Below are positions 1 to 11,233 of a stretch of 38,690 bases of DNA, one piece after another. The notes under the pieces are model-generated. The model saw only the letters and a program-made list of their open reading frames with translations, had not been told where the DNA came from and did not search any database. Each line of letters starts with the position of its first letter. Position 1 is the first letter of the stretch. Source of the stretch: Candidatus Hadarchaeota archaeon (lineage in GTDB: Archaea > Hadarchaeota > Hadarchaeia > Hadarchaeales > Hadarchaeaceae); the NCBI GenBank assembly GCA_964446015.1, contig CAYUMT010000001.1, positions 1 through 38,690 on the forward strand. Direction: 5' to 3'. The translations under genes were made by a program, and so were the position numbers.

Positions 1-47
1 ATGGCAATTAAAAGAACTTGCCCGATAGTCCATACTCCCAGCATCAT
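1..47 (-). CDS. Possible 5' end of a membrane protein gene running off the window (MMLGVWTIGQVLLIA...)
   Basis: ATG at 47/44 on the minus strand, open to the window edge, with a hydrophobic N-terminus and a CTTAAAAA TATA-like box about 20 nt upstream. Too short to verify. Confidence 0.3.
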   Translation of the reverse strand, partial: MMLGVWTIGQVLLIA

Positions 48-304
48 GTTATGAGGCGGCTATTTTTAAGCAAGAATACTGGCGCTCGTTATTGATGGGA
101 GTGCAGCCCAGGGGGGGACGTGCTTGTCGGGATTTAATAGAAGGGCGCGAAGTATCACAAAAGGGTGATGTGTTAAATTTTAACCTTTAGTTCCGAAGTG
201 AGGAAAATTAAGCCAATTCGCGTGAAAGACCACCACTCCGGATTATGTTCCAGATCAGAATAACAAAGTTGAAATTACTCAGGGGTTGAATAGTTAGGGT
301 ATGC

Positions 305-2815
305 TCACCCCTTCTGTATCTCATAAATAATTGCCAACAGTTTCAGTACATTAACAAATCGCTTCGCGAATATATTGCTTCTATCCAATTCTCTCTCGAA
401 TGCTTTCACAACAGAACTGTAAACAGCGTCTTCAGTTATGACACCCTTGGCCAAATCGGTTGCAACGGACTCGAAAGATTTCGCCCCCAGTTTTTCTTCC
501 AGCCTCCTTAAAATCTCATCTTTCAGTTCGTGGCCCTTTAAAATCGCTCTTTCGCCTGATTTAATGTCGTCATTTTCTACTCTAACAAGCTCAAAAATTG
601 ATTTTGTGTCTGTTATCTTTAACAGATTGACATCCCGGTCGAACGTCATTAGGCTGGCTTGCTCTTCCTTGGTAACGTGGTCGCTGGCCAACGTTGCGAC
701 GAAATGAGCTATTTCGTAATCTTTAGTGAACACATTGACAGGCACATTGTCCAGAATACCAAAGCTGTACTCAGAAGGCGTGATTCTTTGGATTACCAGA
801 CCGATGTTAAACGCCTCTTTTGACTTCTTCAATGCTTTTTTCACATCGGCCATAAAGCTATCTCTGAAATCAGTAAACAATTCGCCTTTATCCAGTACAC
901 CAACCCAGGTGCCTTTGGAATATTTCATAAAATCATACTTGGGCTCTACTCCGTATTTTAACTTCACGTCCTCAATCACCATGGAGTCCTTAAGATTCCA
1001 TCTGTCGGCAGGTTGCTTTTCCAGACTCCGTTTTGAAAGAGAATCAATAATGTCTGCCAACCCTCCTTCGAAAGAGCTCGATAGTATCAAATAAGCACCA
1101 AATACCTGCGCGTCAATGGCTTTTTCAATCGTTCCGATTCTTACCTCTTCAAAAGTCTTTTTAACAGCCTCTTTTAGTATTGTAAACTTTTGGACTTTTT
1201 CTATTGCCTCCTCAAGTTTCTTCGTTTTTTCTTCTATTAGGGCTCTGAGATAGTCAGACGTACTGTCGTACCATTTTCCTTCCTTAAGTTCAGCCTGTAA
1301 GAATTCGAATTCTTTATCGCTGCTATCCTTGGCGAACCGCTTTATCAACTCTGAGTTCCTCTTTAATTCTTTTATCGTAACTAAATCTCCGCCCCGTTTT
1401 TTCTTTAATTCATAATATGCGCGAACAATCGCCACGGCTATCGTATCGGTAGAGGCAATTTCACAAGCGGGTTTTCTGAAAGAGATTTCGCTATTGAACT
1501 TTATTGGAATTGAAGCTTTCGCGAAACCATCTAACAACTCCTTCGTGGCAATCTCCGTTTTGAGACAGCTCAGTCCAAATATGTAGCAAAGGGATATAAT
1601 TTGTCTTTCAAAAGAAGTCAGATTATCATCAACGTTCTTTAGAATTAGTTTTAGAGTGGGCTTCGATTCAACCTTCAGGTCATTCCTCTCTAAGAAATCA
1701 CTATAAGTTTGGACATAATCAAGAAGATGTAGTGAATTTGAAATTGTCTTATTTATTTCAGAAAGACTGAAATCTGGTGCTTCCTCTAATACTTCAACTA
1801 GATCGTCCATGCCGTAGGTCAAGGACCCGCTGGCAGGAGTCAATTTGTTACTATTGGCTAAAACGGCCGCTAAGTTTTTCAGCGAATTTTTATTTTCCTT
1901 AATTCTTCTGAAAATTGCACCTGTGTTCTGATCATTGTGTTCTTTGTGCAACAGATTCACAACATCCGGAGTTGCCTTCTCGCCACTGGTCATCTCTGAA
2001 ACTATCTTCTTGATAATTAATGCCTCCCACGTGGCTTCGTCATCAGTTATTTTGGCTTCTGCTGGTGGTGATTCTCTAATTTCGCTGAAGAAGAGCTCGT
2101 CGTTTTCGAAACGAATATTGTAATAATCTAAGGCAGACTGAAATTCCTTAACCTTTCTTTCAAATTTAGTCACAAGACTGATTTCTGCGTAGACTTTGTC
2201 AACTCCGGGAACGGCCTTTGCGACAGACGCGAGGACACTACCAATGGTCTGAGCCAGCTTTTTTAGTCTCGGTACTTTCTCCGCGTAAATCAGCTCTGGG
2301 TTGGAAAAGGACTTCAAACGAGAAACACTTCGCAAAGAGTTGACAGTTTCGTTAAATAGTTGCGAGTCATATCCCAATTCATATTTCACTCGGTAGTATA
2401 CGATTGCAGAAACTACGCCGTAAATAATCAGCAGGGCCACTCTCATGAGGTCATTTGGAACGATGTAGTATACCGAGGCAAGTACGAGGAAGAAGAACAC
2501 TATTACGGTGTATTTGAAGTATTCTGTTGCTCTTTCACTCAGTCCGTTTAAAAGATTTTCCACACCATCGCGAGAAGTTGTATAACTCTGACTTATCTCG
2601 TCCTCCAATTTCTTTACCTTTGTGTTCAGCTGGTCGACATTTTGCTTGTTTTGCTGTTCAATGTTCAACACAGTTTTATCCAAATCACCCAGGAAATGTG
2701 TGGCATCTTGATTCGCTTTTTCTGTTTCTTCTTCGATTTCATCCTTTAGCGATTCCAAGTCTGACTTTATTTCGCTCGGTGTCCTGAATTTGGGAGGCTC
2801 GTCAGCCATAGGCAA
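305..2815 (-). CDS. Large hypothetical protein: acidic N-terminal coiled coil, two TM helices, ~690-aa soluble region
   Basis: 836-codon ORF (ATG at 2809 is an alternative start). Heptad-rich N-terminus and hydrophobic segments at about aa 98-118 and 123-143; no recognisable catalytic motif. Confidence 0.85.
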   Translation of the reverse strand: MPMADEPPKFRTPSEIKSDLESLKDEIEEETEKANQDATHFLGDLDKTVLNIEQQNKQNVDQLNTKVKKLEDEISQSYTTSRDGVENLLNGLSERATEYFKYTVIVFFFLVLASVYYIVPNDLMRVALLIIYGVVSAIVYYRVKYELGYDSQLFNETVNSLRSVSRLKSFSNPELIYAEKVPRLKKLAQTIGSVLASVAKAVPGVDKVYAEISLVTKFERKVKEFQSALDYYNIRFENDELFFSEIRESPPAEAKITDDEATWEALIIKKIVSEMTSGEKATPDVVNLLHKEHNDQNTGAIFRRIKENKNSLKNLAAVLANSNKLTPASGSLTYGMDDLVEVLEEAPDFSLSEINKTISNSLHLLDYVQTYSDFLERNDLKVESKPTLKLILKNVDDNLTSFERQIISLCYIFGLSCLKTEIATKELLDGFAKASIPIKFNSEISFRKPACEIASTDTIAVAIVRAYYELKKKRGGDLVTIKELKRNSELIKRFAKDSSDKEFEFLQAELKEGKWYDSTSDYLRALIEEKTKKLEEAIEKVQKFTILKEAVKKTFEEVRIGTIEKAIDAQVFGAYLILSSSFEGGLADIIDSLSKRSLEKQPADRWNLKDSMVIEDVKLKYGVEPKYDFMKYSKGTWVGVLDKGELFTDFRDSFMADVKKALKKSKEAFNIGLVIQRITPSEYSFGILDNVPVNVFTKDYEIAHFVATLASDHVTKEEQASLMTFDRDVNLLKITDTKSIFELVRVENDDIKSGERAILKGHELKDEILRRLEEKLGAKSFESVATDLAKGVITEDAVYSSVVKAFERELDRSNIFAKRFVNVLKLLAIIYEIQKG

Positions 2816-3158
2816 TCTAATAATTCTATAAAAGCCATACCATAAAGAACTTGGCCGCCCCTATGGATTGCTGCTTCTGTTTTTCTCTGTTCAGTTAGCG
2901 CTACAGCGTTCCAGAGGCCCATTGCTTAATCAGCAAGTCCAAGGTCTTGGTCTTCAAATAGTCAGGGTATTCCTATCCATTGCTTAGGTAGCTCTTTTTG
3001 GCGCCATTTTTCCCGCAGTCAGGGGTCAAAATACATGGTTCTTTTATCATTTCTGTTGCTCCCCTCATGCGCGCGAATATCGCGGGGCGCGCCCTAGCGT
3101 TGTCTGGCTAGAGTATTTTAGAGCGAAAGATGAGGAATGTAAGGGATAGGGTGATGAG

Positions 3159-3785
3159 GTGGTCGATGTTCTTAATACCGTGCTTGTATTAGCGAACCTT
3201 GTACTCATCTACTTTGTCTTCCGGCAAGTTCGCCTTGCCTACAAGCCCCTGATAACCACGGCGGTGATTTCAGGGGAAAAGGCGCGGAAAGACGTGTTCA
3301 TCAGACCAGACGTCCTTGAGTCCGGCGTGCTTTACTTGGTCGTCAGCAACATATCTAAGAATACCGCGTCGAACATGAAAATTCGCTGTGAAATTTCTTT
3401 GAAGGGCAAGGACGAAAAACTGGATGAAGAAGACAAGGCTTTGGACTACCTTAATCCTGGCGAGACAACGGCAGAGCCCATGTACTTCGCTAAAAACCTG
3501 CTGGACAAACGCGCGGATTTGTTCGAAAAAAAAGTCACAGCGGAAAGGGCGGAATTAATGATACCGAAGGAGACCTTGTGGCTGATCTTGAACGTAACCG
3601 TGACTTACGGCTTCCGTTTATGGAAACACAAGGTAAGGGACTCATACGAGGTGGAATGGGGATCTCTGAAGAGTTACCCCAATATTAAAGACCATCCCAT
3701 TCTGTGGAGTTGGAACAAGAGAGGCAGACAGTACATTTACAAGTGGGGCGAAAAGAAAAAAGATGATGAACCAGACCTTCGTTAA
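3159..3785 (+). CDS. Hypothetical protein with N-terminal membrane anchor and predicted beta-rich domain
   Basis: GTG start preceded by a GGTGAT RBS; hydrophobic VLNTVLVLANLVLIYFVF segment; 208 aa. Confidence 0.75.
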   Translation: MVDVLNTVLVLANLVLIYFVFRQVRLAYKPLITTAVISGEKARKDVFIRPDVLESGVLYLVVSNISKNTASNMKIRCEISLKGKDEKLDEEDKALDYLNPGETTAEPMYFAKNLLDKRADLFEKKVTAERAELMIPKETLWLILNVTVTYGFRLWKHKVRDSYEVEWGSLKSYPNIKDHPILWSWNKRGRQYIYKWGEKKKDDEPDLR

Positions 3786-3892
3786 CTCCTGTGTCTGAGA
3801 AAATGACGAAAATCGAGGTCGCCGCTCTTTCTTACTCACTCTTTGCTTCCCTGTCCTAAACCACTAAACTATTCTTTTGGCAAGACGTTTGA

Positions 3893-4309
3893 AGCGAGAT
3901 ATTAGATTTGAGGCTTGAGGACGTGGATTTTGAGAAAAGAATGCTTGCCCCGCTTGGCAAGGATTCAAAGACCAAACGGACCTGGTACTCCTTCTTCAAC
4001 GAGGAGGCTCAAGAAGCCTACAGGAAATACCGAAAACAGGGACGACTTACCAATGGCCTCTTGTTTGAGGGTACGGGACATACAAACGGAGTCTTCAAGA
4101 AAGCAAGCGAGAAAACGGGGGTAAAGGTAACTCCTCAAACGTTGCGCGACTGGTTCTGCTCCGAGATGGGCGAGTTGGGAGTCGCGGATAGATACGTGGA
4201 TGCGTTCTGCGGGAGGGTACATCGTTCAGTTTTAGCGAGGCGTTACACCGACTTCAGTCCTGAACGGTTGAAGCGGATTTACGAGAAAGCAGGGTTGAGG
4301 GTTCTATGA
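3893..4309 (+). pseudogene. Tyrosine recombinase/integrase, C-terminal fragment (archaeal SSV-like family)
   Basis: SEILDLRLEDVDF (post-box-I), TPQTLRDWF (HxxR equivalent) and GRVHRSVLARRYTDFSPERLKRIY (catalytic Tyr region). An in-frame TGA at 3890-3892 replaces the box-I GLR catalytic Arg. Confidence 0.85.
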
Positions 4310-4399
4310 TTGGGCAATATTCACTTTCTACTCCCCAGAACCAAAATTAACTCCTCAATCCTTTTTAACGGCGGAAGAGAAATAACTAAGGGACAAACC

Positions 4400-5125
4400 T
4401 TGACGAACGGCGGGCCTATTAAAGAGGTTCGAGGGCGCAACGGCTTAGTCATTGATTTCAACAAACAAAAGATTTTCGGCTCCGTCTTTAGAGTGGTAAA
4501 AAACCTAAATGCAGCTAAAGACCTTTCAGATAAAGTTGTAAGAATTCTTGAGCTAAAGTATCAGGCAAAGCCCCCCACACTTATGGATATTCGCCATGTC
4601 GTCAATGAAGTTTTGATTGAATATACAATCCAGAGACCTATACGTCGTCGGTTAAATCATCCTCCAAGAGGTGAGCGATATATTAGAGGGACGCGGATGG
4701 TATGGAGTTTTGAATACAATGGATGGATAGATCCAGACGCGCATGGGCCTCCAGGGGCAAGGTATAGACCCGCAGTTTACAGGGATAGAACGTCTTCAAA
4801 ATTACACAATATGTGGCGGAAACAAGAACAGTTGGAAGAGTTGAGACGAAAATATGGGGGCTTTTGTGCCGCTGGAGGCAAAGCGTTGAAATACGAAGAA
4901 TTGGAAGCAATAGATAATCATTACTCTTTAAAAGAAGGGGATAGTCTAGCTGAAGAGCTGGTTTCAAAAGGTTATTTATTCAGGGAAGCTATGGAAAGAA
5001 AAAAATTTTTCTTTTTCACGGAATTAAGAAATAGATACGAGTTGACAAAAAAAGGAGAATCTGTGAACAGCTATACGAGTTTTCTGAAACTTCTTGCAGG
5101 AAGTCGCATATCATGGCTCCTGTAG
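4400..5125 (+). CDS. ATP-cone domain protein with C-terminal winged-helix-like region
   Basis: IKEVRGRNGLVIDFNKQKIFGSV...TLMDIRHVVNEVLIE matches the ATP-cone pattern; EELVSKGYL...RYELTKKG is a wHTH wing motif. Start set at TTG 4400 (AAGGGA RBS, TTTTAA box at ~4363). Confidence 0.75.
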   Translation: MTNGGPIKEVRGRNGLVIDFNKQKIFGSVFRVVKNLNAAKDLSDKVVRILELKYQAKPPTLMDIRHVVNEVLIEYTIQRPIRRRLNHPPRGERYIRGTRMVWSFEYNGWIDPDAHGPPGARYRPAVYRDRTSSKLHNMWRKQEQLEELRRKYGGFCAAGGKALKYEELEAIDNHYSLKEGDSLAEELVSKGYLFREAMERKKFFFFTELRNRYELTKKGESVNSYTSFLKLLAGSRISWLL

Positions 5126-5546
5126 ATAAGAATTCTTGAACGTCTCAGCGCGGGCGTCGTCATGCGCGCAAACTTGGAGAACCGGTGGGGAAAGAAGCTC
5201 GTCCTGTACTGGGTCCGCGAGTTGGGCGAGGGCGCCTTCCACCGAGCGCTCATCGAGCACGCCCTGGCCCTGTTTGCAGAGTTAAGTCGAGACGCTGCCA
5301 GAGAAAAAGTACGCTGACGTGGCAATCAAATAGGGCAGGGCGCACGTCGCCATCGAGTGCGAGAGCGGTTTGAAACACGATTTGACAAAGTTCGCCGCGG
5401 AATGCAGAAAACGCCTGCGGGTTTTTGGCACGGTGTGGGTGGTACCGAGCGCGTCCGAGAAGTTGCGCTACGCGTCTGCACTAAAAGCTGTGAACGTGGA
5501 CGTGATGACGCTGCAGGAACTGGCGGTAAGGCTGTCTAAAAAGTGA
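5126..5546 (+). pseudogene. Disrupted PD-(D/E)xK-like domain remnant
   Basis: Frame 1 ...GEGAFHRALIEHALALFAEL...REK joins by a +1 shift at the A-run 5304-5308 to YADVAIK*GRAHVAIECESGLKHD...; internal TAG at 5331-5333, final TGA at 5544-5546. Confidence 0.55.
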
Positions 5547-5751
5547 AGGCTTTTGGGACTGAGGCGAAGGGCGAGCTCTCGACCCGAGCCTGTCCCGATG
5601 GGTTGAGAAAAGGCGAAGTCCGCACGCGAAAACTGCGACATACCGCCCAGTATGCACGGTTTACGGGGCATACCGCCTTCTCTCTTTAGGGGCGGGCGTA
5701 AGGACGTTTTTCGCCCTTATGACGTCCCCACAAATGCCTATGAAATTCTGA

Positions 5752-5979
5752 TTATCCCCTAATTACTCCTTTTCCGTTACATGTTGGACACGGTAAAGTT
5801 CTTTCTCCGCCACATCTTGGGCACGTTATCTTCTGCCATGTCATGGAATGAAATATGTCTGGTTGCTTCTCTACAATTCCCGTCCCGTTGCATTGAGGAC
5901 ACCTCAAACGTTTATTACCATGGCATTGAGGACAGTTCTTAGCAAGCCAGCCCGGAGGCGCGATTTTCCATTCATCCAT
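5752..5979 (-). CDS. Small stand-alone DnaJ-type cysteine-rich zinc finger protein (75 aa)
   Basis: Four CxxCxG repeats (CPQCHG, CPQCNGTG, CPRCGG, CPTCNGKG); ATG at 5979 with a GGTGA RBS. Confidence 0.85.
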   Translation of the reverse strand: MDEWKIAPPGWLAKNCPQCHGNKRLRCPQCNGTGIVEKQPDIFHSMTWQKITCPRCGGERTLPCPTCNGKGVIRG

Positions 5980-6115
5980 TTCTTCACCATAAAAATTACG
6001 ACTAATAAAATATTTATACGTATTCATTCTATGGCTCTTTAAATTGGGCGACTTTAGCAAAAGCGGCGGTTTGGCGGAAGGGGCGAAAACAGACCGCGAA
6101 ACCCGCACGCCGGGG

Positions 6116-6658
6116 CTAGCGTGTTAGTGGTCGTCTGCAAACAGGGCAGGAGTAATTTTTCACATCAGTATGAAGATAGTATGGTGCTTGGCAATCTCGG
6201 TATCCGCATCGGGTTAAACCGAGTCCAGTAGGCGTTTGTCTCAAAACTGGAATCCAAGCTTCGTAAGATCTGACCACCCGTGTTATGTAGTCTCTATGTT
6301 CTTGCGAGGAAAAATCATAGAGCATATAGTGATGCAGAAAGGGGACAGGAAACGGTATTGGTGCAGACTGAATTGGTTCAAACACCCATATCTCCTTTGG
6401 CGGTTGAATACTTGCAGCCGCCCCCGTTTCGAACCCGACCCATATTTTAGTGGCGGGTTCTCTTGTAATGTTTGGTCCAAGCAATACAAAGAGAGCATCA
6501 GAGGTGCGAATCTGATTTAGAATAAAGTTGGCTGCTGGCGGCTCGTACCTCTCGAACTCGAGCCTGACGGACCTAACATAGCGACCAGAAAAGATTTCGT
6601 CAAAGAACTTTCTGATGTCTTGGTCATACTGACTGTGAGATATAAAAATCTGTGGTAC
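6116..6658 (-). CDS. TIR-like domain (ThsB/MTH538-type fold) protein with C-terminal Zn ribbon
   Basis: IFISHS first strand, IRTSDALFVLLG, WVGFETGAA (catalytic-Glu motif WxxxE), C-terminal CGYRDC...CPVC. The domain starts at GTA 6658; the nearest canonical start is TTG 6832. Confidence 0.75.
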   Translation of the reverse strand, partial: VPQIFISHSQYDQDIRKFFDEIFSGRYVRSVRLEFERYEPPAANFILNQIRTSDALFVLLGPNITREPATKIWVGFETGAAASIQPPKEIWVFEPIQSAPIPFPVPFLHHYMLYDFSSQEHRDYITRVVRSYEAWIPVLRQTPTGLGLTRCGYRDCQAPYYLHTDVKNYSCPVCRRPLTR

Positions 6659-6999
6659 GTTATCCCCTATTGTGTTTGGGTTTCTCTTAGCTCTTAAGCT
6701 GCGTGTGGGAGAAGGGGCGTGATATTCCTCACCGGGAACTGCAATCTGAAGTGCTAATGCGTTTAATGGAAAAATCCTGCTCGAAAAGGCTGTTTTGAAC
6801 TCCGATAACCAAAGCTGGCGAGGGAGAGGCAATTATCCACTTTGAAAAAGGAAGGTGTTCCCCGTTAGCCCAAATTTGGGCGAACGGGAAGGCGAGGGTT
6901 GCGTCCCACTTTTTCATCGCCCTTCGGAACAGCTCATCGCTCTCTTCCAGTTTTCTTTCCTCTGCCCTTTTTTCGAATAAGAGGGTGCGTGATATCATG

Positions 7000-7159
7000 A
7001 AAAAAGCCGTGGGCCCACATCCTCACGGGTCAACCATCGCCTCCGCTTTCGTCTGAAGGGCAATTCATTAGGCCTGGAGTCCCCCGCCAGCGGGTCAAAA
7101 AAGCTGTTTTTGCCTTACACGGCCCCAAAGTTTTAGGGCCAAGCTACCCCACGGCCCCC
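7000..7159 (-). ncRNA. Candidate structured ncRNA or decayed tRNA-Pro/att remnant
   Basis: Starts GGGGCCGTGGGGTAGCTTGG like archaeal tRNA-Pro. The 5' and 3' ends are complementary (GCCGTGGG/CCCACGGC), with internal hairpins, an upstream CTTTTAC box and a downstream T6. There is no T-arm or CCA-side acceptor strand. Confidence 0.4.
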
Positions 7160-7204
7160 GCCTAATTCTGAACTCTAAAGGTAAAAGCTTGAATGAAAAA
7201 AGGC

Positions 7205-8395
7205 TCACTTGCGACCCTTAAGCAGCCTCTCCATTTCCTTCTCAAGCCACTCCACCGGAGCCTCCTGTATGCTTATTTTAAGGCTCTGGCCGCGTTGCCC
7301 CGGCCCCGATGGTTGAACGTCAACTAGGCCCAACCCATTCATCCTCTGCAGGTACTCCCAGAACTGCGTGTGTTTACGTGAATCCTCGTCGTACTCCTCA
7401 CATACCACGCGATAGTTCTTTTCAACATCGCCTGTAAATGCGTAAGCCCGCCTTGATGACTTCAGCTTCCGTGCCACGGCGAGAAGGACAAGTTTTTCAT
7501 GTAGATGAAGCTCCCGCAAGGTCTCCCTCTTAAGCTCGGGATACACATCGGCCTTGGCCTTCCTCACATGCTCGGGCGTCGCCAAATCCTTACCCTCGCT
7601 GTCCGCAGCCATCCCTGCCCTCCAAAGCAACTCCAACGCAAAACGGGCATCGCCCCAGCGGGAGGCTATGTCAGCTATGAGCTCCAATGTGTCCTCCTCC
7701 ACAGTGCCAGCTTTGAAGGCCTCTCCGACACGCTGTTTCAGTATATCAAGCAGCTGTGTTAAGTTATAGCGGTCAAGCGATAGGACGTTGTGCATGAAGC
7801 TACTCTGAGTGGCTGCGTCCGTGGAACGGAGGAAACTTTTGTCGCGTCCGATCGCGATCATGCTTATACGGTTTTGTCCGCCGGACTCCTCAGCTGCCCT
7901 CGATAGTGAATAAATTAGGTCCGGTCCATTTTGTTCAACGAAGAAATCGAGTTCATCAAGCGTGAGCACAAGGTAAGTGTCATGTGAATTTAAATAGGTG
8001 ATAAGGTCGTTCAATAACTTCTCCGGCCCGAGGCCGCGGTATGGCTCTTTCGGGTTGAAGCGTTGTACGATTTTTGATAGAACAGCGTACAACGTCTTGT
8101 CCTTGCGACAGTTTATATGGAGGTACACTAGGTTCATCTTCCTGTCCTTTGCAGCTGACTCCAGCTCCACGCCGAACTTCCGAGTTAAAGCCGTCTTCCC
8201 GACCCCAACGCTTCCAGTAACTAAAACCCTCTGGCTGGCCCTATTTTCCAGAACAAGCTTGAAAGTCCGGATTAGCTGGCGGAACTCCTCATCCCTGTGC
8301 ACCAATAACTGTGGGACATAATCTGGCATTAGCTTGCTAGCATCTCGGAAGACCGTGTTCCTCCCCATCTCCTCCTCAAAGATCTCCTTGTACAT
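7205..8395 (-). CDS. cdc6: ORC1/Cdc6 replication initiation protein
   Basis: PDYVPQLLVHRDEE, Walker A GSVGVGKT, Walker B LTLDELD, GDARFALELL sensor and C-terminal winged helix; 396 aa. Confidence 0.97.
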   Translation of the reverse strand: MYKEIFEEEMGRNTVFRDASKLMPDYVPQLLVHRDEEFRQLIRTFKLVLENRASQRVLVTGSVGVGKTALTRKFGVELESAAKDRKMNLVYLHINCRKDKTLYAVLSKIVQRFNPKEPYRGLGPEKLLNDLITYLNSHDTYLVLTLDELDFFVEQNGPDLIYSLSRAAEESGGQNRISMIAIGRDKSFLRSTDAATQSSFMHNVLSLDRYNLTQLLDILKQRVGEAFKAGTVEEDTLELIADIASRWGDARFALELLWRAGMAADSEGKDLATPEHVRKAKADVYPELKRETLRELHLHEKLVLLAVARKLKSSRRAYAFTGDVEKNYRVVCEEYDEDSRKHTQFWEYLQRMNGLGLVDVQPSGPGQRGQSLKISIQEAPVEWLEKEMERLLKGRK

Positions 8396-8620
8396 CCGCC
8401 GTTCCCCAAAACCTCTCAGCCGTACATTCTATAATTAATGCTATGTATTTAGGAATTTTAGAAGATGAAAATTGTAAATGAATCCAAAATTCAGTTGGTA
8501 TTCCTAATCGATAGAGAAAATTTTAGACATCTCAAAATGAATCATTATCGAAAAAAATTGACGCAGGAGTAAAAACATCTATTAATAAAGCGTTTTTGTA
8601 TTATCACCATGTTTATTAAT

Positions 8621-9832
8621 TCATTTTTCTTTTTGCTGCCCTTTAAAAGCGATTTTAATGAGAGGCGGGGTAATCAAAGTTGTTGCAAGTATTACCATTA
8701 TGGTCATCGAAAACAACGATGGACTCACAATGTTTGCATTTATACCTATTGCGGCCATTACGAGCGCCACCTCGGCCCTGGGCATCATCCCGATACCAAC
8801 CCTCAACGAGTTCTTGACTCCATAACCACTCAATATTGCTCCAAGTCCGCAGCCTAATATTTTGCTAATCACTGCTACCCCTAGAAAGGCTAGTGCTAAA
8901 AGACTAACAGCGCCCAACGATTGTAAATCTGTACGTACTCCCATCTCGACAAAGAAAAAGGGAATCAGGAACCCGTACCCGACCGTCGAAACCTTCGCCC
9001 GCAGTGGTTCAATAACTGAAGATTTGCTCACGATTAGTCCGACTAGAAAAGCGCCGGTTATGGCCGCTATGTTAACCATCTCAGCAAGGGCGGCGACTAA
9101 AAATACTATCGCGAAGGTTAAGGAGAGTATTATCTCCTCTACCTGAACTCTACCGACGTATGTGAGTATCCTTGGCACTACACGAAAACCGATCAGCAGC
9201 ACAGCAGCGAAAAAAAGTCCCATGAGTGCAAAGGTTTCAATTAGACTAAGCGCCGATATAATCCCAAACGCTAGGCCTGAAAGGACACTTAAGATAATGA
9301 TACCCATCACGTCGTCAATCACCGCTGCGCCAAGAATTGTCATGCCAACACGGGTGTGGAGCCTGTCCACATCTATTAGAGTCCTCACGGTTATACCCAC
9401 ACTAGTCGCGACTAATATCCCCCCAGCAAAGGCCGCTTCAAGAAGTGTCCAGCCGAACACCGACGAAACGCCAAACCCTAGTAAAAACGAAAATACGACT
9501 CCGCTCGCGGCGACCATCGTTGCTGGTTTTCCCGATTTTCTGAACTCCTCCACATCTATGGAGAGCCCGGCTATGAACAGCAATATTATTATCCCTATTT
9601 CAGCCAGTACGCCCATGAACTGGCCTGCTGGAGCATCTGGGTTGATGAACAACGAGACGCCAAACAACCGCCGGGACAAAAACCCAGCGACAGAGGGGCC
9701 AATCAAGATTCCCGCCAAGAGTTCCCCAAAGACTCCTGGTTGCCTTAGTTTTGCTGCCAATACACCCCCCAGCTTCGCCGCAATAAGAAAAATGGCCATG
9801 TATAGAAGCACTGAGGATATCTCAACTTCCAT
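8621..9832 (-). CDS. Cation:proton antiporter (CPA2/NapA-KefB family), paralogue 1
   Basis: QPGVFGELLAGILIGP, ATSVGITV, GAAVIDDV and GMMPRAEVAL motifs; about 12-13 TM segments. Confidence 0.95.
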   Translation of the reverse strand: MEVEISSVLLYMAIFLIAAKLGGVLAAKLRQPGVFGELLAGILIGPSVAGFLSRRLFGVSLFINPDAPAGQFMGVLAEIGIIILLFIAGLSIDVEEFRKSGKPATMVAASGVVFSFLLGFGVSSVFGWTLLEAAFAGGILVATSVGITVRTLIDVDRLHTRVGMTILGAAVIDDVMGIIILSVLSGLAFGIISALSLIETFALMGLFFAAVLLIGFRVVPRILTYVGRVQVEEIILSLTFAIVFLVAALAEMVNIAAITGAFLVGLIVSKSSVIEPLRAKVSTVGYGFLIPFFFVEMGVRTDLQSLGAVSLLALAFLGVAVISKILGCGLGAILSGYGVKNSLRVGIGMMPRAEVALVMAAIGINANIVSPSLFSMTIMVILATTLITPPLIKIAFKGQQKEK

Positions 9833-9851
9833 TATACGCGCCTACCTCAAA
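9532..9851. repeat. 320-bp perfect direct repeat, copy 1 (copy 2 at 10933-11252)
   Basis: Base-by-base comparison at offset 1401 shows identity over the first 100 codons plus 19 nt upstream. Confidence 0.93.
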
Positions 9852-10036
9852 TTTAAAACTCCGCCATAACCCGACTGTACTCGCTAAGTGTTTGAAGGCT
9901 TATTGGCGATAGAGCAGTCTGATGTTTTATGCTGGCTTGAAATATAAAAATATTTGATTTTTTCTCTTTAAACATAAACACAACCGTATAAAATTTACAT
10001 CTTAACTTAAAACGCTTGATATTATTCCAACCCGTT

Positions 10037-11233
10037 TTACTTTTTAAATGCAAATTTAACGAGAGGTGGGGTGATTAGAGAAGTCAATAGTACGACCATT
10101 ACAGTCATGGAAAGCAACGAGGGGCTGACAACGTTTGCTCTTACTCCTATTGCGGCCATTACGAGCGCCACCTCGGCCCTTGGCATCATTCCGACGCCTA
10201 CCTTAAGCGCATCTTTAGGTCCAAAACGGCTCATGAGTGCACCCAAACCGCAACCTACTATTTTATCGAACATGGCGATTCCTAGGAAAGCAAGTGCCAG
10301 GAGGCTGACCGCGCCGAGTGCTTGGACTTCCGTCCGCACCCCTATTTCGACGAAGAAAATGGGGATCAGGAGTCCATACCCGACTGTCGAAGCTTTTCCC
10401 CTGAGCGACTCGGCAACTGGAGATTTACTTATGATAAGACCCACCAGAAAAGCGCCGGTTATGGCCGCTATGTCTACCCTCTCAGCAAGTGCAGAAACTA
10501 GAAATACTATCGCGAAGGATGAAGAGAGTAATATCTCTTCTACACGAACTCTACCGACGTATGTGAGTATCTTTGGTATCACTCGAAAACCAATGAATAA
10601 TAGAACGACAAAAAATATCCCCATCAGCGCGAGGGTTTCTGCCAGGCCCAAAGCGGATATTCCCCCCAATGCCACACCAGAAAGCACAGACAAAATGATA
10701 ATTCCTATCACATCGTCAATTACCGCGGCACCCAAAATTGTCATGCCAACACGAGTGTGAAGCTGGCGTATCTCCATCAGCGTCCTTACAGTGATACCTA
10801 CACTTGTCGCTACCAAAATCCCTCCTGCAAAAGCCGCCTCAAGAGGCGTCCAGCCAAAAATAGATGCCGCCCCGAAACCTAGTAAAAACGCAACAACAGC
10901 TCCACTCGCCGCGACCAATGCCGCGGGCTTTTCCGATTTTCTGAACTCCTCCACATCTATGGAGAGCCCGGCTATGAACAGCAATATTATTATCCCTATT
11001 TCAGCCAGTACGCCCATGAACTGGCCTGCTGGAGCATCTGGGTTGATGAACAACGAGACGCCAAACAACCGCCGGGACAAAAACCCAGCGACAGAGGGGC
11101 CAATCAAGATTCCCGCCAAGAGTTCCCCAAAGACTCCTGGTTGCCTTAGTTTTGCTGCCAATACACCCCCCAGCTTCGCCGCAATAAGAAAAATGGCCAT
11201 GTATAGAAGCACTGAGGATATCTCAACTTCCAT
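10037..11233 (-). CDS. Cation:proton antiporter (CPA2/NapA-KefB family), paralogue 2
   Basis: Same motifs as paralogue 1 (ATSVGITV, AVIDDV, MMPRAEVAL); 398 aa. Confidence 0.95.
   Translation of the reverse strand: MEVEISSVLLYMAIFLIAAKLGGVLAAKLRQPGVFGELLAGILIGPSVAGFLSRRLFGVSLFINPDAPAGQFMGVLAEIGIIILLFIAGLSIDVEEFRKSEKPAALVAASGAVVAFLLGFGAASIFGWTPLEAAFAGGILVATSVGITVRTLMEIRQLHTRVGMTILGAAVIDDVIGIIILSVLSGVALGGISALGLAETLALMGIFFVVLLFIGFRVIPKILTYVGRVRVEEILLSSSFAIVFLVSALAERVDIAAITGAFLVGLIISKSPVAESLRGKASTVGYGLLIPIFFVEIGVRTEVQALGAVSLLALAFLGIAMFDKIVGCGLGALMSRFGPKDALKVGVGMMPRAEVALVMAAIGVRANVVSPSLLSMTVMVVLLTSLITPPLVKFAFKK

Follow-up and report, generated by a model that had tools for sequence, protein, structure and literature searches.

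The cdc6/orc1 gene of a Candidatus Hadarchaeota archaeon is followed on the minus strand by the first twenty nucleotides of a proline tRNA, and these run directly into about 140 nucleotides of other sequence. The locus raises the question of whether the two parts form an RNA gene in its own right or were brought side by side by an event in the DNA. A preliminary description of this border had seen a structured element headed by tRNA-Pro and equipped with its own promoter and terminator, and had considered it to be a tRNA-mimicking non-coding RNA, the 5' piece of a split tRNA or a decayed tRNA-Pro integration site. The window analysed here is the whole stretch of 38,690 nucleotides, which begins at the first base of its contig.

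Features of the cdc6/island border

The features on which the argument turns are the following.

7205..8395, minus strand: cdc6/orc1 gene, on the host side of the junction (Pfam Cdc6_lid 3.3e-22, Cdc6_C 2.1e-20)
7207-7205, minus strand: cdc6 stop codon TGA, followed by GCC
7196..7201, minus strand: run of six T (T6), 3 nt past the cdc6 stop codon, by direct reading
7181..7190, minus strand: AAGCTTTTAC box, putative promoter box of the tRNA-Pro gene normally found downstream of cdc6
7139..7158, minus strand: tRNA head, the 5' end (nt 1-20) of the host's tRNA-Pro(CGG) gene, cut off from the remainder, reading GGGGCCGTGGGGTAGCTTGG
7139-7149, minus strand: tRNA nt 10-20, likely recombination core (GGGTAGCTTGG)
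7091..7138, minus strand: 5' domain, the first part of the inserted DNA, nt 21-68 when counted as RNA
7006..7096, minus strand: 3' domain, about 90 nt of conserved non-coding sequence in the inserted end
7000..7005, minus strand: T6 run past the 3' domain, present in this copy only, by direct reading
1..7138, no strand assigned: accessory island, its left end beyond the contig start
3893..4309, plus strand: truncated gene for a tyrosine integrase, a stop-to-stop frame of 138 codons that keeps only the C-terminal catalytic part

The hairpins, loops, pairing ends, CTTTTAC box and T6 runs listed in the preliminary description were all found in their places. CTTTTAC occupies 7187-7181, which is 23-29 nt upstream of 7158, and the T6 run at 7201-7196 is what we take to be an archaeal oligo-T terminator. 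The 5' domain contains an 8-bp inverted repeat, GTGTA and an A/T hairpin. The 8-bp hairpin at 7140-7121 pairs GGCCCTAA with TTGGGGCC through one G-U pair among others, is closed by an AACT loop and includes CTTTGGG, and downstream of it the stem-loops CAAAAA-CAGC-TTTTTG and CCCG-CTGG-CGGG are present together with a CGAAAG and a CGTGAG loop. At the far end, CCCACGGC (7013-7006) is exactly complementary to GCCGTGGG (7155-7148) and is directly followed by T6 (7005-7000). The scan for promoters and terminators was of the bacterial type and is uninformative for an archaeon.

The head and the proline tRNA genes of the genome

The head at 7158-7139 is identical in 20 of 20 positions to C22:1-20, the start of the tRNA-Pro(CGG) gene, and to C80:2368-2387 in the tRNA-Pro(GGG) gene. 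The preliminary description was therefore right to read it as the acceptor 5' strand and the start of the D-arm of tRNA-Pro, and set against the tRNA family (RF00005) these two parts are perfect. Within the window the 20-mer is single copy with up to three mismatches allowed, and 0 of 100 shuffled sequences matched it. Similarity to tRNA-Pro(CGG) stops abruptly at 7139/7138, and the D-stem 3' strand, the anticodon stem, the T-arm and the 3' acceptor strand are all missing from the element. ARAGORN predicted 0 tRNA genes in the window, Rfam gave 0 matches there at the gathering score, and the RF00005 model placed 32 genes above its cut-off elsewhere in the genome and none at the head locus, in keeping with the earlier remark that a T-arm is absent. 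The assignment to Pro(TGG) has to be corrected, as the tRNA involved is Pro(CGG); CTTTGGG resembles the anticodon loop of Pro(UGG).

Complete tRNA-Pro genes for all three anticodons are present in the assembly: GGG on C80, CGG on C22 with two introns, and UGG on C34. The last of these, whose presence the preliminary description had proposed to check, was read directly as a whole gene with a canonical intron at C34:13722-13816; ARAGORN gives wrong labels to several intron-rich tRNA genes of this genome. By wobble pairing, tRNA-Pro(UGG) could also read the codon of tRNA-Pro(CGG). T-arms with a CGGCCCC 3' end occur in the assembly only within the whole tRNA-Pro genes and tRNA-Trp, and a search of this assembly, 80.5% complete, found no orphan of that kind. 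An apparent second 5' tRNA fragment on C24 was discarded, as the 1406-nt "intron" reported there by ARAGORN is an artefact.

The uninterrupted site in relatives and in a sister population

The preliminary description had named an intact tRNA-Pro at this position in relatives as the finding that would turn the element into an att scar, and the gene was found in all of the same-genus genomes examined (5/5: G001, G003, G005, G006 and G007) as well as in a contig from a sister sample. In the five genomes it lies about 40-50 nt past a cdc6 ortholog of 76-79% identity, behind the same CAAGCTTTT(T)A box and with the same spacing as in the window; its anticodon is CGG where it could be parsed (G005), and a cysK-like gene comes next in four of them. 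Because the tRNA-Pro of these relatives stands behind the same box, the CTTTTAC box would be the conserved promoter box of the tRNA-Pro gene, and the AAGCTTTTAC box would act as a promoter, to judge from its position and its conservation. The cysK ortholog of the present genome is found on C22 at 9708-10721 (74% identity, NCBIfam cysK 5e-107), and C22 starts exactly at nt 1 of tRNA-Pro(CGG) with nothing upstream. The tRNA that opens C22 would either mark the far junction on this same chromosome or belong to a co-assembled strain whose allele is uninterrupted.

Contigs of four public runs were compared with positions 3000-11000 of the window. A 627-nt contig from run X2, which is another sample of the same study, spans 7139-7654, after which its next 111 letters are unlike the window; the 30 printed letters past this breakpoint, read by eye, are the reverse complement of C22 nt 21-50. 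This contig bridges cdc6 to tRNA nt 21-50, so the sister population has cdc6, the promoter and a whole tRNA-Pro(CGG) gene. The contig and the synteny of the relatives together identify 7139/7138 as an insertion junction. At the level of sequence, these comparisons establish that 7190-7139, which holds the promoter box and tRNA nt 1-20, is the start of the host gene itself, and that the order cdc6-promoter-tRNA-Pro is uninterrupted in the sister population and in all same-genus genomes examined. Of the reading as a decayed tRNA-Pro integration site, the integration site is borne out by the empty site and the synteny; the decay is not, since the 20 nt are identical to a living gene. In G003, in a second X2 contig and in the X4 contigs, homology to the locus begins or breaks at 7147-7149.

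The read depth of run X2 was recorded separately and was not used as evidence; there was no cover in 14 of the 15 bins of 3000-7004 and cover in 15 of the 15 bins of 7005-11000.

Accessory DNA beyond the junction

From 7138 to at least base 1 the DNA is accessory, to judge from its reading frames. The 836-aa ORF (305-2815) was found in 0 of 40 relatives, and the 238-aa ORF (6116-6832), which has a weak TIR-like ThsB match (E 0.0015), was found in one of them at 34% identity and with an internal stop in that match. Matches to the 271-aa ORF (4310-5125) are present in 27 of the 40 and cover the ATP-cone part only, inside proteins of about 700 aa. A further island ORF of 118 aa is a DnaJ-type zinc-finger protein. 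The integrase remnant is matched by Pfam PF00589 (5.8e-6) and by PHROG integrase families (7.8e-10 to 6.5e-9); it is the sole integrase of the island, and its being truncated and 2.8 kb from the junction counts against an insertion. A second junction was not found, there being no other copy of the head in the window at up to three mismatches, and the contig starts inside the island; the second head copy that had been suggested for the far end of the island is thus not in the window, and that end lies beyond the contig. When contig ends were searched for overlaps, none overlapped the start of C22 or of C1.

Copies of the inserted segment

A sequence-only model of nt 10-68, which comprises tRNA nt 10-20 and the 5' domain, matched four of 66 Hadarchaeota genomes, namely this one, G003, G019 and G059, and metagenome contigs of X2 and X4 also match this stretch, ending or diverging at 7147-7149. 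The G003 copy is shared from tRNA nt 10 onward only, with nt 1-9 absent; such an element would fail to restore the tRNA, which counts against an insertion. In G019 a diverged head stands behind a TATA-like box downstream of a 313-aa gene, the counterpart of which in G003 is directly followed by tRNA-Pro(GGG), and this arrangement hints at a second event of greater age. In G059 the 20-nt head is complete and leads into the 5' domain; within 58 nt an integrase reading frame is picked up at about codon 270 and continues to its end (tblastn 8e-17), and the DNA after it shows homology to the flank of a G047 integrase gene that is intact and 337 codons long. Because the head and 5' domain of G059 adjoin this integrase 3' fragment, the 140 nt past the head are regarded as element DNA.

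Past nt 22 the 5' domain is weakly collinear with the tRNA-Pro(UGG) gene of C34, its intron included; the alignment score is 20 as compared to 13.6 +/- 2.0 for shuffled sequences, 6 of 500 of which reach 20. From this alignment, the 5' segment looks like a captured and degraded copy of a tRNA-Pro gene. The att regions of elements that target tRNA genes are often degraded tRNA copies. The pattern of the 5' hairpin was found only in the G003 and G019 records among genome contigs and in none of the viral contigs, and blastn of 7000-7138 gave no match in phages or plasmids.

The 3' domain (nt 64-150) has two paralogs in this genome, at G000:C79:3115-3203 and 4214-4301, and one homolog at G003:C15:522-606, with a mean column identity of 74% among the copies. 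Its covariance model matched three of the 66 genomes, and two after the G014 match of model R1 was dropped because it lies inside coding sequence. Each of the two C79 copies lies directly against a 15-17-nt repeat whose sequence is that of the tRNA-Val(CAC/GAC) 3' end of relatives in reverse complement, and after another 2.8 kb C79 has a third such repeat, 20 nt long; ParE-like, PadR and amidohydrolase genes are found between the repeats. Repeats and genes are arranged here as is usual where small islands stand in tandem at a tRNA 3' end. The copies on C79, in G003 and in G019 have no T-run after them.

No protein gene is common to the four contexts, which are the window island, C79, the G003 contig and the G019 contig. 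There is no ORF common to the five copies either, and the idea of the element as the leader of a downstream ORF was rejected on that ground. The 3'-hairpin pattern returned four metagenome contigs and 0 viral contigs; the four match in the hairpin only and look like chance, three of them lying inside coding-like sequence. A decayed integrase was also considered for the 3' domain, as the stretch LPFRRKRRRW resembles by eye the LPFRRRYLRRYK linker of one intact integrase. This was unsupported, the best hit of tblastn with five intact integrases on 5500-7400 having an E of 0.47, and it has no counterpart in the C79, G003 and G019 copies.

Tests for a structured RNA

The folding energy lay within the range of shuffled sequences in five of five tests. 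For the whole 163 nt it was -64.1 kcal/mol as compared to -60.9 +/- 3.7 for the shuffles (z -0.86; 36 of 200 shuffles were as good), for nt 1-67 z was -0.54, and for the conserved 3' part the four copies gave z +1.45, +0.96, -1.20 and +0.80. The minimum-energy folds differ among the copies, and RNAalifold proposed 16 pairs, 0 of them with a double-sided change. The 8-bp closing stem is peculiar to the window copy. The element had been called structured, and this holds for the hairpins, all of which are present, while the fold as a whole is no better than that of shuffled sequence. The claim of a promoter and terminator of its own is not supported in that form, as promoter and head are parts of the tRNA gene of the host, and no other copy has the closing stem or the T-run.

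All four copies keep a hairpin, AUUG-C-CCUUC / GGAGG-YGAU, in which the GAAAGC loop is invariant. In one X4 contig (depth 5.4), four of nine substitutions hit a second candidate hairpin, on both of its strands, and leave its pairs intact or improved, the changes being C73>U with G86>A, U89>C and A91>G in RNA numbering. Such pair-keeping changes would be easier to reconcile with an RNA or a folded single strand than with an arm that binds protein. The 1-2-nt indels and the stop codons in every frame speak against a coding sequence.

Rfam, searched with E up to 10 on 6900-7300, returned only an unrelated weak C/D-box match at 6908-6944 and no tRNA match, and Rfam 15 had no match at the two C79 copies. 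A reading as RNase P, prompted by a GAGAAAGUC-like stretch in one C79 copy, was set aside, there being no match to an RNase P model and the family occurring in 2-4 of 66 genomes.

Discussion

Our results make it probable that a DNA insertion has interrupted the tRNA-Pro(CGG) gene, whose normal place is just downstream of cdc6, and that the element at the cdc6/island border is one junction of this insertion. An element with the tRNA-Pro-like core GGGTAGCTTGG would have recombined into the 5'-distal part of this gene, presumably by site-specific recombination of the integrase type, and the crossover may be placed within tRNA nt 10-20 because similarity to the other copies of the family extends to that stretch and is lost further upstream. 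The approximately 140 nt past the head would then be a terminal segment of the element, similar to an attP arm and derived in part from a gene like that of tRNA-Pro(UGG). The argument for the att-arm role is one of position, and similar segments adjoin tRNA-end repeats elsewhere; the hairpins with a conserved GAAA-type loop that this segment carries count against it. The orphaned tRNA promoter probably still fires and would give rise to a chimeric RNA of about 160 nt ending at the T6 run.

We consider it unlikely, with some evidence on its side, that the family of about 140-160 nt is a functional structured RNA on mobile DNA that is expressed here from a captured tRNA promoter, with a role that might lie in integration, in defence or toxin-antitoxin control, or in mimicking a tRNA. 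A conserved non-coding family without shared neighbours, represented by three copies here and by G003, G019, G059 and the X2/X4 contigs, would be expected of such a gene, as would the GAAAGC-loop hairpin kept in 4/4 copies, the pair-preserving changes of the X4 contig, the small indels and the stops in every frame, and in the window copy a promoter stands upstream and a T6 run downstream. Against this have to be set folding energies no better than those of shuffles in 5/5 tests, the 16 RNAalifold pairs of which none is double-sided, a closing stem and T-run confined to the window copy, the lack of any Rfam match even at E up to 1-10, a sparse distribution (3' domain in 2/66 genomes, 5' domain in 4/66) and the evidence of the empty site that promoter and head are host tRNA sequence. 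The tRNA-mimicking non-coding RNA of the preliminary description is not supported in that form, with a fold at chance level and a start derived from the host, yet the 140 nt that follow are conserved and non-coding. End-encoded guide RNAs occur in some bacterial insertion sequences, and by analogy the 140-nt segment could be an RNA of tRNA-targeting archaeal elements, with a target-like start, which comes under the captured tRNA promoter once the element has integrated at the 5' side of a tRNA gene and might guide or regulate recombination there; alternatively, it might be an initial step on the way to a split tRNA gene. We rate this as very unlikely.

Two further explanations were weighed. 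A chromosomal rearrangement, in which homologous or integrase-mediated recombination joined tRNA-Pro(CGG) to a resident pseudo-tRNA-Pro and swapped the downstream DNA, has little probability in our view. Copies with a tRNA-Pro-like head do exist independently (the diverged head of G019, and nt 10-20 only in G003), the overlaps of contig ends yielded no second junction, and inversions driven by integrases between tRNA genes are reported for Thermococcales (PMC5495485); but the DNA beyond the junction is without orthologs in 40 relatives, and the integrase remnant marks it as accessory DNA and not as displaced core genome. A 5' half of a split, trans-spliced tRNA-Pro, whose 3' extension would pair with the leader of a separate 3' half, is highly improbable, all three tRNA-Pro isoacceptors being whole genes (C80, C22, C34) and the assembly, 80.5% complete, holding no orphan T-arm with a CGGCCCC end. 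By inspection, the sequence past nt 20 folds on itself and has no bulge-helix-bulge at 20/21. This is set against an exact tRNA 5' end behind a working-looking promoter, a lineage rich in intron-bearing tRNA genes, and the proposal in the Caldiarchaeum paper that such insertions are an origin of split tRNAs (PMC3293823). The split-tRNA suggestion of the preliminary description is accordingly not upheld, given the whole GGG, CGG and UGG genes.

An insertion into the tRNA-Pro(CGG) gene has a close counterpart. In a Caldiarchaeum population, an insertion that carries a recombinase is reported to have parted a 5' tRNA-Thr fragment and its upstream flank from the remainder of the gene (PMC3293823). 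This fragment, tRNA-Thr-F of 'Candidatus Caldiarchaeum subterraneum', comes from tRNA-Thr(GGU) and comprises nt 1-27, as compared to nt 1-20 here (Sugahara et al. 2012, PMC3293823). In both cases the fragment is identical to a living gene and joined to the upstream flank, with the rest beyond the inserted DNA; interrupted and uninterrupted forms coexist in nature, and a repeated non-coding block adjoins the fragment. The tRNA-Thr-F case differs in that a single clone shows the two junctions, an insert of 1.9 kb and a putative ORF for a recombinase, whereas the present case, in Hadarchaeota and in tRNA-Pro, offers one junction, an insert of at least 7.1 kb and a truncated integrase.

Recombination with the 5'-distal part of tRNA genes is known and is much rarer than that with the 3'-distal part (Krupovic et al. 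2019, PMC6563490), one 5'-distal case being reported among 39 thaumarchaeal tRNA integrations. The att cores given there have a median of 17 bp and go down to 8 bp, and the core at this locus is at most 20 bp and probably 11 bp. The present element resembles those in having the 5' part of a tRNA gene as target and an insert with DNA of the tyrosine-integrase type; it differs in that no direct repeat was found for the far end at this locus, where the contig starts inside the island. The "suicidal" integrases of the SSV type have attP inside the integrase gene (Badel et al. 2020, PMC7253208), and the G059 copy, with an integrase gene fragment directly beside the tRNA-derived head, is similar to this arrangement. 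No frame of an SSV-type partitioned integrase runs through the head in the window, where stops occur in all three frames, and, unlike the SSV type, the intact relatives, which are XerD-like and 309-329 aa long, are encoded by genes without a copy of the 5' domain.

The type of event is thus already known: a tRNA-gene insertion junction, here of the less common 5' orientation and accompanied by a documented empty site. What appeared to be an odd tRNA-headed RNA would be the scar of an insertion at the start of a tRNA gene and not at its usual end, and the occupied and the empty site have both been caught in natural samples. Insertions on the 5' side are rare in the literature and have been proposed as raw material for archaeal tRNA fragments, new introns and split tRNAs. 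A further documented case in the little-studied Hadarchaeota is useful and not surprising. The finding would gain greatly in interest if the conserved non-coding block, which adjoins cores derived from tRNA in several contexts unrelated to one another, turned out to be an RNA.

A second insert at the tRNA-Pro gene

In the source assembly (G000), contig C22 begins with a whole tRNA-Pro(CGG), and a complete pyrrolysine cluster lies directly 3' of it, outside the window:

C22 226-6572 (locus L058), pyrrolysine cluster

Its proteins matched PylD (3e-65), PylC (6e-91), PylB (1e-120) and the C-terminal part of PylS (4e-73), and ARAGORN placed tRNA-Pyl at c[4512,4581]. Beyond the pyl genes lie an MtbC-like dimethylamine corrinoid protein (1e-80) and then a dimethylamine methyltransferase ORF, whose end at 354 of the 466 profile positions fits an in-frame amber codon, as expected. 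In four same-genus relatives no more than about 400 nt separate the tRNA from the cysK-like gene after it, and the block of about 9.5 kb on C22 is therefore a second accessory insert at the same tRNA-Pro.

Ends and partners of the conserved block

The 3' domain, the conserved non-coding block beyond the severed tRNA-Pro head in the window, ends at the following positions, two of them in the C79 paralogs and one in a relative (G003):

window 7006-7020
C79 ~3195-3203
C79 ~4293-4301
G003:C15 ~522-530

In three of these four copies the terminus reads GGGGCCG or GTGGCCG, which repeats the first seven bases of tRNA-Pro, and the block is thus bracketed by acceptor-stem-like words. The bracketing may stem from base pairing, from duplication of the target or from an additional core.

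In two relatives an integrase gene was found, in one of them joined to the head and the 5' domain:

L084 (G059 contig C109) 41-330, full tRNA-Pro head and 5' domain joined to an integrase 3' fragment
L085 (G047:C34) 1501-2472, intact 337-codon XerD-like integrase gene

The G059 fusion retains the last ~50 codons of a XerD-like integrase and is frameshifted close to their end, and the final codons of the intact G047 gene, GGCGTAGCTTGA, resemble the core at nt 9-20 of tRNA-Pro.

Repeats on C79 and other contigs

C79 carries three direct repeats (15-20 nt) of a tRNA-Val(CAC/GAC)-type 3' end:

C79 3091-3109, minus
C79 4128-4146, minus
C79 6965-6984, minus

Genes for a ParE-like protein, PadR and an amidohydrolase lie between them, and the arrangement resembles a series of small islands in tandem. 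No intact tRNA-Val with this 3' end was found in the G000 assembly.

A short GC-rich motif (...GGGTTCGGG(T/C)CC...) is repeated across G000 contigs and in G008, another relative:

C79:3330-3375
C79:6985-7010
C92 ~6111-6145
C59 ~10867-10901
G008:C20:23881-23921

The copies on C79, C92 and C59 run on into a common tail of ~30 nt, and tRNA-end-like repeats often adjoin the motif.

Other RNA genes

RF00373, the model for archaeal RNase P RNA, had no match in the G000 assembly, which is 80.5% complete; SRP RNA is present (C1:50928-51237). ARAGORN misnamed several intron-rich tRNAs, and tRNA-Pro(UGG) at C34:13722-13816 was called Leu(taa). Past the window end lies:

C1 41809-41940, minus, tRNA-Trp with a long intron

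C/D-box words are known from archaeal tRNA-Trp introns, and similar words (CTGA, GATGATGA) occur inside this one.

Candidate defence cargo

Two adjoining ORFs in the window island may be a defence-type cargo pair:

6116-6832, minus, 238-aa ORF, weak padloc match to TIR-like ThsB (E 0.0015), C-terminal CxxC...CxxC
5752-6108, minus, 118-aa DnaJ-type zinc-finger protein (Pfam 3.9e-9; padloc PDC-M01B 1.5e-8)
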